Source: Kiritimatiellia bacterium (GTDB lineage: Bacteria; Verrucomicrobiota; Kiritimatiellia; RFP12; UBA1067). From it: DNA of 64,000 bases. The stretch is taken from assembly GCA_027858965.1 (NCBI GenBank), contig JAQIBS010000146.1, positions 3,234 through 67,233 on the forward strand, in the 5' to 3' direction. The position numbers and the translations under genes are program-made. Below, in pieces: positions 27,350-55,780 of this stretch (its first letter is position 1; the number at the start of each line of letters is the position of its first letter). Below the pieces are notes generated by a model, which saw nothing but the letters and a program-made list of their open reading frames with translations, had not been told where the DNA came from and did no database searches.

Positions 27350-28252
27350 ATGAATTATATCTCTCACACCTTTTCCTATATTCAATATTTGTTCATACGG
27401 TTAGCCGGAGTGCTCTACAAGCTGGTTCCGGCATATAAAGCGTATGACTTCGGTGCATCCATAACAACACTCTTTTATCCGGTATTTAAGAAACGCCGCC
27501 AAATAGCAATCGACAATATTTTGCAGGCCAAAATAACCGAAGACCCCAAGGAGGCGGACCGCATAGCACGACTGGCCTTCGGCCATCTGGCGGGACACAT
27601 ATGTGAGGCAATGAAAGCTGATCAGATTATTACTGATAAAAACTGGCTGGAGCATATCACTTTGGAAATGTCTGAATCCAGCCGGCACCTCCTTTTCGAG
27701 GAAAAGGACCACCCCCTGATGATGCTGGGAGGGCACCTTGGAGTATGGGAGGCGGGCGTAACCAGCATGGCCAGAATACGTCCACTGATTGCAATCGCAC
27801 GAAAAATGAACAACCCTTACGTGGAACGCTTTTTAAACGCAAATCACTTTCGCGGCAAGGTCACCATAGTTGATAAAAATAAGGGTCTTACACCCAGTGT
27901 GATCAAACAATGGAAAAGAACCTCCGCCATAATGGCAATTGTTATGGACCAGCATGCTGGAAAAAAGAATGGCGTCAGGGTCGATTTTATGGGAAGAAAG
28001 GCAGGCACCCATACATCACCAGCCAGACTTCACCTTCGGACAGGAATACCTGTTATAACTGCAACCCTGATACGTAAATCCCCCTTTAAATATACTTTAA
28101 TCGTCAATGAACCCATCCGCTTTAAAAAAACAGGCGACAACAACAACGACATAAAAGATTTTCTGACCCTTGTAAACAAACAGGTAGAGAAGATGATCCG
28201 AAACTGCCCAGAGCAATACCTATGGGCTCATAAACGCTGGCGCCCTGAATAG
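27350..28252 (+). CDS. Second LpxL/HtrB-family acyltransferase paralog (HX4E variant)
   Basis: 300 aa. 'GGHLGVWEAG' sits where the HX4D motif normally is, and the C-terminus has 'PEQYLWAHKRW'. It starts 6 nt after the preceding membrane/TPR gene. Confidence 0.65.
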   Translation: MNYISHTFSYIQYLFIRLAGVLYKLVPAYKAYDFGASITTLFYPVFKKRRQIAIDNILQAKITEDPKEADRIARLAFGHLAGHICEAMKADQIITDKNWLEHITLEMSESSRHLLFEEKDHPLMMLGGHLGVWEAGVTSMARIRPLIAIARKMNNPYVERFLNANHFRGKVTIVDKNKGLTPSVIKQWKRTSAIMAIVMDQHAGKKNGVRVDFMGRKAGTHTSPARLHLRTGIPVITATLIRKSPFKYTLIVNEPIRFKKTGDNNNDIKDFLTLVNKQVEKMIRNCPEQYLWAHKRWRPE

Positions 28253-28275
28253 CGCGATCGTCACTACGAAAGCAC

Positions 28276-28438
28276 AAAAAAACGGCGGATAAAAGCTTTA
28301 ACGCTCTTATCCGCCGCCAGGGAGGACATATATTAATTAATGTGACATACATAATTATTTTTAATCATGCGGTACTTACACGGGGGAAGCGAAGTACCAG
28401 CTGCCACTTGTATCAACAACCTGGGGAGGTTGTTTGAT
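28276..28438 (-). ncRNA. Candidate ~160-nt small RNA bounded by a consensus promoter and an intrinsic terminator
   Basis: On the minus strand, the -35 TTGACA (28473-28468), a 17-nt spacer and the -10 TAATAT (28450-28445) lie downstream of an A-tract UP-like region. The terminator stem is cggcggataa / ttatccgccg (28283-28316) with U7 (28276-28282). There is no credible ORF. Three C-rich motifs are present: CCUCCCC, CUUCCCCC and GUCCUCCCUGG. Confidence 0.5.
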
Positions 28439-28604
28439 GAGTGCATATTACTATACGCACCCTGTGTTGTCAACAGGACGCACCCATTTTTTTTATTTTT
28501 TTTTATTTTCTTCGATAAACACTCGTTTTTGCAAGATTAAGTCGTTTTTTGAATTCATCACACCGAAGCACCGTCTGACAAACCGGCAAATGAAAGGCTG
28601 AAAT

Positions 28605-29336
28605 ATGAAAAAATTAATCGCCATTACACTCCTGGCGTCACTGGCAACACTCTGTTTTGCACAGGATGACGGCTGGATATCTCTCTTTAACGGCAAGGAC
28701 CTTGATGGATGGGAGATCAAAACTAAAGCCGCATCAGAACACTGGAAAGTTAAAGACGGTGTAATTGATTGCAGCCCCAGCACCCACCCCAAAGGAGATA
28801 AGCACCTCTGGAATACAAAATCATTTAAAGACTTCAAGCTGCATATAGAATGGCGTATCAAATCCAAAAAAGGAATTTATGAGGTCCCGGTTGTACTGCC
28901 TGATGGAAGCTACAAAAAGGACGCCAACGGCAAAAAAATCACTAACCCCCAACCCGGTGCCGATTCAGGCATCTATCTACGTGGATCCAGTAAAGCCCAG
29001 GTCAATATTTGGTGCTGGCCGATTGGCTCCGGTGAATTCTACGGCTATCGCAACAAGCAGGATGATCCCAAAACACGCGCAGCGGTCACACCGAAAGTCA
29101 ATGCCGACAACGCGGTTGGAGAGTGGAATACATTCGAAATCACTCTGGTTGGTGACATTGTGACAGTTATACTCAATGGAAAAACTGTAATCGAAAAAGC
29201 ACAGCTACTCGGCATCCCCGCCGAAGGGCCGATTGCCCTGCAACACCATGGTGGATACATCCCAGAGAAAAAACGCTGGGGCGGTGCATCCAGTCTGGTG
29301 CAGTTCCGCAACATCAAGATCAAGCCGATTGAATAA
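28605..29336 (+). CDS. DUF1080 (3-keto-disaccharide hydrolase-like) family protein, secreted
   Basis: It has a signal peptide. The opening 'DDGWISLFNGKDLDGWEIK' and the ending 'IALQHHG...VQFRNIKIKP' are typical of DUF1080. Confidence 0.8.
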   Translation: MKKLIAITLLASLATLCFAQDDGWISLFNGKDLDGWEIKTKAASEHWKVKDGVIDCSPSTHPKGDKHLWNTKSFKDFKLHIEWRIKSKKGIYEVPVVLPDGSYKKDANGKKITNPQPGADSGIYLRGSSKAQVNIWCWPIGSGEFYGYRNKQDDPKTRAAVTPKVNADNAVGEWNTFEITLVGDIVTVILNGKTVIEKAQLLGIPAEGPIALQHHGGYIPEKKRWGGASSLVQFRNIKIKPIE

Positions 29337-52947: not shown

Positions 52948-53027
52948 CCAATTATAATGTGAAAAAGATCTCAAGGGTGTGATTCAAATTAGTTGATTAA
53001 ATAAATTTTGTTAAAATTAGTCGTTTT

Positions 53028-55676
53028 TCAAGGTAGCAGCACAGCTTGTGAATCCGCCTCAAGGTATATCACTTCTCCCTGGAAAAGAGAGCCCGGCGGC
53101 AGCTCATTCCCAAAAAGGCCAAACGCGTGTATCTCTTTGTCTACAGGCATTTTACACGGAACAAACCCAGGCGAAGATGAAATCACTGCAACAGCACGCT
53201 TTTTTCCTTCAAAAATATAAGCATACACCCCACTTGAAATATCCCTTCTCTCCACAAAACGGGTATCTTCAAGCATCCAGGCAAATTGAGCATGGGCCGC
53301 CCCTGCGGGATGCAGACAACCATCATCAGTGGTGAATACATTCCATTTCTTTGATTCAGTGCTAAAGTGTCCATTATGAGCGTGCATGCTGTAAAGAAAG
53401 ATACGGGATACCCCATTAGCCAGCATGGAGAGCTGATAACGGACAATCCTATCGGCGCTTTCAAGCACCTCATCCCTATTTTCAAAGGGAAGCGTATGCT
53501 TATAAAGACCATTGCCCATGCGATAGATTAATGGCGATCCCTCTGTCATCCAGATCCTCTTTGAGATACTGCCATACTTCTCGCGCACTGGGCTGATCGC
53601 ATTTGACAGCCCCTTTTCCACGGAATCTCCCGGATAACCCACCCCGCCGGTGGTATAGCAGTGATAGGCAATGCCATCACAGTGATCGAGACCACCTGCC
53701 TCCACGATACCCCGTGTCCACTCAGTTCCTCCGTAGCTTGAAGAGGAATTCTTAGAGGATGTGGTTGTGTTAACCCCGAGAACCAGTGCCTTAGGCTGTA
53801 TTTCATGAACCGTATCCCGGGCCAGTTTTGTCAGTTGCGCAAAATCTGCCGGTGCGTTCTTGCTGGTCACATATCCAGCCCTACCGCTCTTTGTGTGGTC
53901 ATAACCGATACCCCACCAGGCATGAATCCAGGGTTCATTCCAGACATCAAAAGCATCAATAATCCCCTTGTAACGCTCACAGACAACGCGCACATAATTG
54001 ACATATTCATCCAGATTCTTCGGCTGAAAAAACTTATCAAAGTATCCAAATGTCTTTAACCCGGCATCCTGATAGTAACTAGCCCAAGGTGGAGCTGTTC
54101 CAAGTTCAGCAAAGATCTTTATCCCATGTTTTCTATACCTTTTTATCTCCCGATCAAAGAATCGCCAGTTTCCCTTCTCTGGTTCCAGGTTCCACCAGCC
54201 GATATACTCCAACCCCGCATCATGCAAACGTGTCCAGTTGATGCCGATGGCCTTCGCCATCAGTATATGACGGGAGGACGAGAGGGTGTGTACTCCAAAG
54301 GGGGAGTCAGGTGCATCTTTTCCCCAGTAGCGCGGACGATGAAGCTGATGCCAGACCAGCTCTGCCCAGGGAGAGAGTGCTTTGCCATTACGCTCAACCC
54401 GCGCTTCCAGCCTGAAGCTACCGTAACGTTCCGTCAGATCTTTAAGTTTTATCCTCTTAACCGCTTTGAACTCCCCATGACTCAGCTCTTTTTCATTTGT
54501 ATCAAAGAGGCGCCACTTAACTACGGAATCTTTGTAATCCCCTGTCAACGCTGTATCAACTGCAGCAGATTCATCATCAAAAACAACCCGCGCCGCACCG
54601 GCATCATACCCAGGCGCCAGCGCAACGGCAACTTCGCACTGAGAAGGAGCTATGTAACGGCCTTGATAAACGCTCTCCGGACCAATATGCAACTTATCAA
54701 TCAACAGCTCGCCCTTGCCTGAGAGAGTAATCTGACAGAAGCTGTTTTTGATTGAACTCTTAAAAGGCAGTTCTACTCTTTGCCACTCATCTCCGGCTTT
54801 AAAGGATTTCGATTGCTGTCGCAACCCGGGGCCAAATACAGAGATTGTCCAATCACCTTTGCCACGCACTGAGAGTGAGGCTGTATGCGGCACAATCGGA
54901 TATACCAACTCTACCGGTGCACTGTATATACTGGTATCTTCAGCGGAAGAAATCCGCATTGCCGGAGCCAGATCCCCTTTGGCGGCCTCAACCGTAACAA
55001 CATCCCCATCAGAAGATGCCCGGTTAACGCTCCATCCCGTTGGCAGCCCCAATGGGAAACGGGTACTATACGCCAGATTATCAGGACCGCCCTGCGGATA
55101 TTTAACCTTCAGCTCTTGTATCAGCGCAGCCTCCGAAAACCGTTCCAGCTTAAACTTCGCTATGTCAAAGCTTCCTGTATTACGAAAGATGATCCAGAGC
55201 CCCATGGGCATATCATTTCCCGGCAGGCGAAACTCCCAATCATATGTTCCCCAGTTCTGTGAAAACTTAGTGTTTTTCTGCCAGTAAAATTTATAGGGTT
55301 TTCCTCGCTGACGCAAACCGATTGAAATATCACTTCCAGAGCCATTGCGACAGGTCAGAGAGAGACGATACAAGCGACTCCCCGACACATCCGCAAGAGG
55401 GAAAACTGCCAGCTGCGCCCAGTTATCATCAATCTTAGTGACACTGGTTCGTTGAAACCGTGTCCCTTGTTCATCGCCAAAAGAATACTCCGCCCAGACC
55501 TGCGCAAAACCGGAGTCATCAATCCAACCCTGAGGCAACTCACCCTTTACGCGTTCTTTCTGAACCACGTACTTTTTGATCTCACCCGCCTCACTGAAAT
55601 CCAGATCTAATAATGTCTCCGACCGGCATAGGCACACCAGAGATAATATGAAAATCAACACTCCAACCTTTTTCAT
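53028..55676 (-). CDS. Secreted clan GH-A (TIM-barrel) glycoside hydrolase with N-terminal beta-sandwich modules
   Basis: It has a signal peptide. 'IDAFDVWNEPW' is the acid/base NEP motif of clan GH-A. 'IWMTEGS' is a candidate nucleophile strand. Confidence 0.6.
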   Translation of the reverse strand: MKKVGVLIFILSLVCLCRSETLLDLDFSEAGEIKKYVVQKERVKGELPQGWIDDSGFAQVWAEYSFGDEQGTRFQRTSVTKIDDNWAQLAVFPLADVSGSRLYRLSLTCRNGSGSDISIGLRQRGKPYKFYWQKNTKFSQNWGTYDWEFRLPGNDMPMGLWIIFRNTGSFDIAKFKLERFSEAALIQELKVKYPQGGPDNLAYSTRFPLGLPTGWSVNRASSDGDVVTVEAAKGDLAPAMRISSAEDTSIYSAPVELVYPIVPHTASLSVRGKGDWTISVFGPGLRQQSKSFKAGDEWQRVELPFKSSIKNSFCQITLSGKGELLIDKLHIGPESVYQGRYIAPSQCEVAVALAPGYDAGAARVVFDDESAAVDTALTGDYKDSVVKWRLFDTNEKELSHGEFKAVKRIKLKDLTERYGSFRLEARVERNGKALSPWAELVWHQLHRPRYWGKDAPDSPFGVHTLSSSRHILMAKAIGINWTRLHDAGLEYIGWWNLEPEKGNWRFFDREIKRYRKHGIKIFAELGTAPPWASYYQDAGLKTFGYFDKFFQPKNLDEYVNYVRVVCERYKGIIDAFDVWNEPWIHAWWGIGYDHTKSGRAGYVTSKNAPADFAQLTKLARDTVHEIQPKALVLGVNTTTSSKNSSSSYGGTEWTRGIVEAGGLDHCDGIAYHCYTTGGVGYPGDSVEKGLSNAISPVREKYGSISKRIWMTEGSPLIYRMGNGLYKHTLPFENRDEVLESADRIVRYQLSMLANGVSRIFLYSMHAHNGHFSTESKKWNVFTTDDGCLHPAGAAHAQFAWMLEDTRFVERRDISSGVYAYIFEGKKRAVAVISSSPGFVPCKMPVDKEIHAFGLFGNELPPGSLFQGEVIYLEADSQAVLLP

Positions 55677-55780
55677 CCCCCCCCCTATTCACATATGAAA
55701 CTATGATATTTTATTGCTCTCAGAACAACCGACATCCTTACCTCTGCCACTCTGCATACCACTTAAATTTAAACTTAAAC

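Follow-up and report, generated by a model that had tools for sequence, protein, structure and literature searches.

The minus strand of a 352-bp gap between two plus-strand genes of a Kiritimatiellia bacterium forms a complete transcription unit and almost certainly carries a real structured RNA gene. We propose, with a probability of roughly 0.6, that the predicted small RNA (sRNA) is a stand-alone, non-coding and trans-acting regulator directed against Shine-Dalgarno (SD) sequences, similar to RsaE/RoxS by analogy and not by homology. Judged from genome, contig and database searches, the sRNA family is new and uncatalogued, and is confined to two families of one order of uncultured Kiritimatiellia. 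All coordinates given here are those of the window, the whole 64,000-nt stretch of DNA that was analysed.

The gap is flanked by a lipid-A-acyltransferase-like (LpxL-like) gene (27350-28252, plus strand; PF03279) and by a DUF1080/3-keto-disaccharide-hydrolase gene (28605-29336, plus strand). On the minus strand, a sequence scan places a -35 hexamer TTGACA at 28468..28473 (28473->28468) and, after a 17-nt spacer, a -10 hexamer TAATAT at 28445..28450 (28450->28445), which together match 10 of the 12 consensus positions. An earlier, sequence-only reading of this DNA had described the same promoter (28473->28445), and it is present as placed. The A-tract resembling an UP element that it had noted farther upstream was also seen, as an A-rich tract (aaaataaaaaaaaataaaaaaaat) at 28486..28510 on the minus strand, running from about 28510 to 28486. 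The transcription start site was inferred at A28438, 7 nt past the -10 box, and the 3' end was placed in the U-tract, so that the transcript would be ~163 nt long (28276..28438, minus strand); both its exact ends and its transcription are predictions from sequence. At its 3' end lies an intrinsic terminator (28276..28318, minus strand) with a 16-bp stem (28281-28318) that includes 8 G-C pairs, a 6-nt loop and a U7 tract (28276-28282). The hairpin and its U7 had been recognized in the sequence-only reading, which nevertheless understated the stem at 10 bp where there are 16 (28318->28281). Its statement that the terminator is oriented for the minus strand only agrees with the plus-strand sequence past the hairpin (CCAGGGAGGACATAT), which has no T-run.

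The predicted RNA folds far better than expected from its composition. Its minimum free energy is -61.3 kcal/mol compared with -32.2 +/- 3.5 kcal/mol for dinucleotide shuffles (z = -8.24), and none of 200 shuffles folded as well. From 5' to 3' the fold begins with the hairpin P1 and continues with a three-way junction (P2/P2a/P2b); 23 nt are then single-stranded, with AUAUAUGUCCUCCCUG at their end, and the terminator follows. P1 spans 28412..28438 on the minus strand, as do all the elements that follow, and has the form AUCAAACAACC-UCCCCA-GGUUGUUGAU, with its C-rich loop at 28422-28427. The three-way-junction domain (28342..28407) is built from the outer helix P2 and two inner hairpins, P2a (28371-28398), which presents the loop UUCCCCC at 28382-28388, and P2b (28349-28370), the loop of which is AU-rich in the window's genus and UUCCCC in most others. 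The single-stranded seed AUAUAUGUCCUCCCUG occupies 28318..28333, and contains the invariant 14-nt AUAUGUCCUCCCUG (28318-28331). Three unpaired C-rich regions would be able to pair with an SD sequence. Two of them are loops, UCCCCA in P1 and UUCCCCC in P2a, with probabilities of being unpaired of 0.72 and 1.00, respectively; the third is the linker GUCCUCCCUGG, and for the seed this probability is 0.93. Folding therefore reproduced the two 5' hairpins proposed beforehand, and the C-rich loops and the single strand before the terminator, which had been described as exposed, are indeed unpaired. What is more, one architecture emerged from independent minimum-free-energy folds of 47 homologues, each folded singly.

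Homologues are found well outside the genus. The sRNA was matched by BLAST in 30 of 41 relatives at E <= 1, and 16 of these matches (E <= 1.2e-6) were strong enough for alignment. All five congeners carry it with 78-89% identity; ten other genera of the family share its final ~70 nt, with an identity of 80-92%. When one genome per prokaryotic species was searched with a 22-nt seed pattern, 46 records were returned, all of them metagenome-assembled genomes (MAGs) of the Kiritimatiellia type. We built a covariance model, R1, which matches the window at 28275-28446 with 120 bits and was used for genome and contig searches. It detected the element in 50 of 301 genomes of the window's order (46 in the window's family and four in a second family), always in one copy per genome. 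Across the class, 11 of 401 genomes were matched, all 11 belonging to the window's order, and the rest of the class among these 401 genomes gave no match. A pattern scan of metagenomes yielded 81 contigs, of which R1 confirmed 61 as true members; the other 20 matches (~15 unique) were rejected as chance occurrences in coding sequence. The searches produced 85 distinct full-length members in all.

The seed is very deeply conserved. The 14-nt AUAUGUCCUCCCUG is invariant in the 17 homologues found by BLAST. In the pattern-derived set this invariance arises by ascertainment, but the same 14 nt are also invariant in the members that R1 found outside the exact 22-nt pattern search, and in these the sequence varies immediately 3' of the seed (...CUGACGG, ...CUGAUGG and ...GGCGGUGG). 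Even the most divergent member, which scores 38.5 bits, retains AUCCUCCCU, and it bears a loop of the sequence UCCUCC. Among the loops, the C-rich P2a sequence YUCCCCC is kept in 83 of the 85 distinct members, and 78 of the 85 have at least two C-rich loops. Those of P1 and P2b are C-rich in most genera, though not in all; the P1 loop is UCCCCCA in most genera and GAAA or AAAAA in some subgroups.

Several observations concern the genomes in which the element was sought. The genera of the family that are without the sRNA (G015, G021, G022, G130, G229, G338, G343 and others) have smaller genomes, of 1.6-3.5 Mb, and are also more distant by L14 and DapF identity. The sRNA may therefore mark a sub-clade, or it may have been lost with genome reduction. 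Some sRNA-bearing public MAGs bear other taxonomic labels: L026, L059 and L061 are titled Akkermansia and others are labelled Lentisphaeraceae or Verrucomicrobia, labels that are probably coarse or wrong. In one public MAG (L060:1-50; CAYSXF010000708.1) a Nextera transposase adapter, TCGTCGGCAGCGTCAGATGTGTATAAGAGACAG, is fused to the sRNA gene, which is an assembly artefact.

The helices are supported by covariation. RNAalifold applied to the MAFFT alignment recovered only the terminator, and for this reason we transferred the fold of a single homologue to the alignment and tallied its pairs there, together with controls. In the MAFFT alignment, which is blind to structure, 85.7% of the cells were paired, compared with 38-49% in controls in which the structure was slid; double changes occurred at 38 of 51 pairs, and none of 500 shuffles reached the observed values. 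With the covariance-model alignment the corresponding figures were 93.2% against 37-45% in slid controls, with double changes at 45 of 51 pairs and again none of 500 shuffles reaching the observed level. Since an alignment fitted by the model leans toward the structure, the MAFFT result is the fairer test. Helix by helix, the model-fitted alignment shows changes on both sides at 12 of 12 pairs in P1, and double changes at 8 of 8 pairs in P2, 9 of 9 in P2a and 6 of 6 in P2b. In the terminator 98% of the cells pair, ten pairs have double changes and the five basal pairs never vary. The sequence-only reading had made its prediction depend on conservation in relatives, to be sought with BLASTN, and on covariation of the hairpins. 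Conservation extends beyond the genus to the 50 genomes of the order counted above, and compensatory changes are found in every helix.

Could the region encode a small protein instead? The minus strand does contain open reading frames in the mechanical sense, one of 46 aa, whose TTG start falls within the -35 box, and one of 76 aa that continues across the terminator, so that the sequence-only reading was not exact in counting an 11-codon frame as the only one. The one frame that recurs among relatives consists of 18 codons from an invariant AUG that lies within the invariant seed; this AUG has no SD sequence, and the frame is open-ended, with no stop before the terminator. Moreover, close relatives differ in the terminator loop by indels of 1-3 nt that change the reading frame, the substitutions in the helices are compensatory and not synonymous, and neither the 46-aa nor the 76-aa frame has a Pfam match. 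We consequently rejected the coding reading, and find it scarcely credible that any of these three frames is the functional product of the locus. An origin from a repeat or mobile element was discarded as well, the element being single-copy in its own 5.9-Mb genome and in its relatives. A phage origin was also rejected: the only match on a viral contig was a chance one, inside a coding region and without the RNA architecture.

Conservation also speaks for the promoter. Promoter-like matches in the region are at chance level (3 found, 2.8 expected in shuffles), and the evidence for the promoter is therefore its conservation. Of 47 genome homologues, 44 have an exact TTGACA that precedes the seed by ~125-140 nt, and TTGAC is present in all 59 distinct members that have upstream sequence; in 49 of these 59 a TAnnAT box follows 17-18 nt past the -35 element, TAATAT being the commonest form and TATAAT the second. 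Over 49 homologous promoters the -60..-38 region averages 72% A+T, without conservation of sequence. This combination of conserved hexamers with an unconserved A+T-rich upstream region is typical of a promoter, as opposed to a stretch that is itself transcribed. On the side, we noted that in many homologues (L027, L031, L046, L051, L052, L064, L065, L069 and others) the -10 box is enclosed by the arms of an inverted repeat, (C)GGGGTG-N14-CACCCC(G). In the window's genus the repeat takes other forms, GTGCATAT..ATATGCAC (28439-28485, minus strand, in the window). A C-run/G-run pair often brackets the -35 box, and the stretch before +1 is G+C-rich. The inverted repeat might serve a dimeric regulator as its operator, or act as a discriminator of the stringent type, although the evidence for this is weak because the sequences are related.

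The genomic context of the sRNA gene bears on whether it acts in cis. In 27 of 46 loci the gene is tail-to-tail with an operon that encodes a TPR/TMEM260-like protein and the LpxL-like protein, an arrangement found across genera. In the window the 3' end of the sRNA lies 24 nt from the stop codon of the lpxL-like gene, and we found no plus-strand terminator-like site between 28252 and 28605. Given this short gap and the lack of a plus-strand terminator, read-through from the operon would be fully antisense to the sRNA. This would suit a role in which the antisense sRNA, or collision of polymerases, sets the 3' end or the stability of the convergent operon mRNA. On the other hand, the remaining 19 of the 46 loci have another context with the same seed and structure, and pure antisense action or interference needs no selection for structure and an unpaired seed. 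As the main function of the locus we consider such cis action very unlikely, but a secondary cis-antisense effect on the convergent operon may be conceivable. The upstream neighbour of the sRNA gene varies between loci too. Retention of the promoter at a fixed spacing while the neighbours change argues for an independent transcription unit and against a 3'UTR, and the variable synteny fits an autonomous, trans-acting gene.

The RNA belongs to no catalogued family that we searched. A search of the whole window against Rfam 15 at gathering thresholds gave no match to the sRNA, RF01820 (RsaE/RoxS) included, and a search of 28150-28650 at E <= 10 returned only noise matches to eukaryotic miRNA and plastid models. 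In full-text literature searches we met neither a study of sRNAs, or of any regulatory RNA, in Kiritimatiellia nor the seed sequence itself. Elsewhere in the window the Rfam search identified an Acido-Lenti-1 RNA motif (RF01687; 3238-3282, minus strand), which scores 41.1 bits where the gathering score is 37 (E = 6.7e-6); the window contains no other catalogued RNA.

The kind of element is nevertheless already known, even if the family itself is new. RsaE/RoxS is controlled by ResDE/SrrAB and Rex, and represses TCA-cycle and redox genes. Its C-rich regions pair with SD sequences and block formation of the initiation complex (PMC4409812), and Hfq is dispensable for RoxS (PMC4409812; PMC6158497). 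The RNA described here resembles RsaE/RoxS in being a stand-alone sRNA with a promoter and terminator of its own (predicted in our case), in carrying several unpaired C-rich regions in loops and linkers (which are known to pair with SD sequences in RsaE/RoxS and would do so here), in presumably having no need for Hfq, the present genome being without detectable Hfq, and in an unusually deep conservation for a trans-acting sRNA. It differs in that it has no match of sequence or structure to RF01820 even at E <= 10, occurs in Kiritimatiellia of the Verrucomicrobiota and not in Bacillales of the Firmicutes, is ~163 nt long with a three-way junction, and has as its main seed a CCUCCC flanked by AUAUAU and located next to the terminator. 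The label "RsaE/RoxS-type" used in the sequence-only reading is thus apt as an analogy, given the unpaired C-rich motifs, but does not hold as membership, there being no RF01820 match and the host belonging to another phylum.

Other C- or CU-rich anti-SD sRNAs include LhrC of Listeria, the CcsR or "cuckoo" RNAs of alpha-proteobacteria with their CCUCCUCCC loops, and RepG of Helicobacter. These share with our RNA the repetition of anti-SD-like C-rich motifs in hairpin loops, presumed to occlude G-rich ribosome-binding sites; the present family, however, has no Rfam family match, is single-copy and not a set of sibling copies, and has a different taxonomic range. In CsrB/RsmZ, GGA loops bind CsrA. 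Here too a short motif is repeated in hairpin loops and in the single strand before the terminator, but the motif is C-rich, that is, complementary to the SD sequence, and not the SD-like GGA, and the genome has no CsrA gene. 6S RNA (RF00013) is rod-like with a central bubble and paired ends, whereas our RNA leads from a hairpin at the 5' end through a three-way junction to the terminator, and its two ends do not pair with each other; the Rfam searches found no RF00013 match at the locus. Three general traits of a trans-encoded sRNA are present, namely a conserved promoter and terminator of its own, no coding capacity, and a conserved and accessible seed.

The host provides the setting in which an anti-SD regulator could work. 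It uses SD sites, as AGGAG is enriched ~12-fold in the interval -18..-5 relative to 3,612 crude gene starts, and the CCUCCC-type motif is the exact complement of the host SD sequence (the 16S 3' end itself was not found in the window's MAG). The complement of the seed, CAGGGAGGACAUAU, resembles a strong SD followed by an A/U-rich spacer. Runs of five or more G residues occur at -25..-1 of 71 starts, compared with 31 and 17 in control windows, and 13 genes of the genome have G6-G9 runs at the ribosome-binding site, several of them G8-G9. Such G-run sites would be natural candidate partners for the UUCCCCC loops. One G-run in the window itself is worth recording: at 55677-55690 (minus strand) a run of nine G residues abuts the ATG (aatagggggggggATG) of a gene (53027-55676, minus strand) for an 883-aa secreted protein. 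Hfq, ProQ and CsrA were not detected in the genome, while the same searches found each of them in control genomes; in particular, PF02599 (CsrA) is missing from the genome, whereas the positive controls were recovered.

A search for individual targets gave candidate sites overlapping the ribosome-binding site, among them AAGGAGGACAUAUU-AUG before a gene for a secreted DUF1080 protein (predicted energy -19.7 kcal/mol). Genome-wide, there are no exact complements of the sRNA of at least 13 nt. In a duplex scan of the 3,612 crude gene starts, the predicted duplexes were no stronger than those inside genes, and extension of the SD sequence toward the seed complement was not enriched; a scan that started from the sites was dominated by false internal starts. 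The starts of the adjacent TPR and LpxL genes have no GGGAGG-type seed complement as inspected by eye, and full-length duplex folds gave no interpretable site there. Two further candidates, rplN with the site GGAGGACA and dapF with its poly-G ribosome-binding site, were followed in 28-30 genomes and rejected, neither site being conserved in the relatives. Pairing at the dapF start was no better in sRNA-bearing than in sRNA-lacking genomes (p = 0.19-0.46).

This lack of an mRNA target signal is one of the points that would favour a different function, in which the repeated C-rich loops and the CCUCCC motif sequester or scaffold an RNA-binding protein and titrate it, as in CsrB/RsmZ. Up to four copies of one class of motif in hairpin loops and the linker would suit a protein sponge, as would the very deep conservation of the seed and of the basal terminator pairs. 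The 14-nt seed and the near-invariant base of the terminator persist across genera in which the LpxL-like proteins are only 50-60% identical; such depth exceeds what most mRNA-targeting seeds need, and could reflect a conserved protein or machine as partner. Yet subgroups differ in how many C-rich loops they have and where these lie, the P1 loop being GAAA or AAAAA in some and that of P2b AU-rich in the window's genus, which is not expected of a multivalent sponge. There is also no candidate protein, CsrA, Hfq and ProQ being absent, and the motif is the exact complement of the host SD. We consider a protein sponge unlikely.

Another possibility is that the RNA serves the translation or transcription machinery in a housekeeping capacity, for example as a mimic of the 16S 3' end that acts in trans to tune SD-led initiation from a growth-rate-coupled promoter. 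The promoter is rRNA-like, with its UP-like tract, consensus -35 box and G+C-rich region before +1; the gene is present in one copy per genome, ~60 nt at the 3' end are conserved to an rRNA-like degree, and the RNA has a CCUCC core. Several genera of the family lack the sRNA, however, as do the searched genomes from the rest of the class, and it cannot therefore be a universal housekeeping RNA. Nor does its structure resemble those of 6S, SRP, tmRNA or RNase P RNA, and Rfam gave no match; we judge a housekeeping role to be highly improbable. Somewhat bolder is a pair of ideas to which we assign a rather small chance, namely that the RNA is a clade-wide, highly expressed trans anti-SD (a 16S 3'-end mimic with an rRNA-like promoter) that tunes strong GGGAGG or poly-G sites, or else that it is the RNA half of a new Csr-like system with a protein that binds C-rich loops. 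Either would explain why the 14-nt seed and the terminator base are frozen across genera in which neighbouring proteins are ~50% identical.

The use of SD sequences by the host, the unpaired C-rich motifs, the invariant CCUCCC seed, the absence of Hfq, ProQ and CsrA, and the precedent of RsaE/RoxS together favour the anti-SD regulator. According to this model, a strong sigma-70-type promoter, made up of a consensus -35 element, a -10 element close to consensus and an A/T-rich tract farther upstream, would transcribe the gene, and the intrinsic terminator would end the transcript. The RNA would display the invariant single-stranded AUAUGUCCUCCCUG just 5' of the terminator, together with one to three further C-rich hairpin loops (UUCCCCC, UCCCCCA). 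These motifs would pair in trans with G-rich SD regions and would thereby block ribosome binding on the mRNAs, as is the case with RsaE/RoxS and other C-rich sRNAs, and the pairing would presumably need neither Hfq nor ProQ nor CsrA.

Kiritimatiellia are widespread polysaccharide-degrading anaerobes of digesters, rumen, termite gut and sediments. The family described here is the first handle on post-transcriptional control in this group, and the covariation of four helices, the conserved promoter and the invariant seed are enough for a family of Rfam grade. By analogy, it would represent another independent case of a C-rich anti-SD sRNA, in a lineage that lacks Hfq, ProQ and CsrA, and as such it would support the C-rich anti-SD design as a recurrent, chaperone-independent solution.
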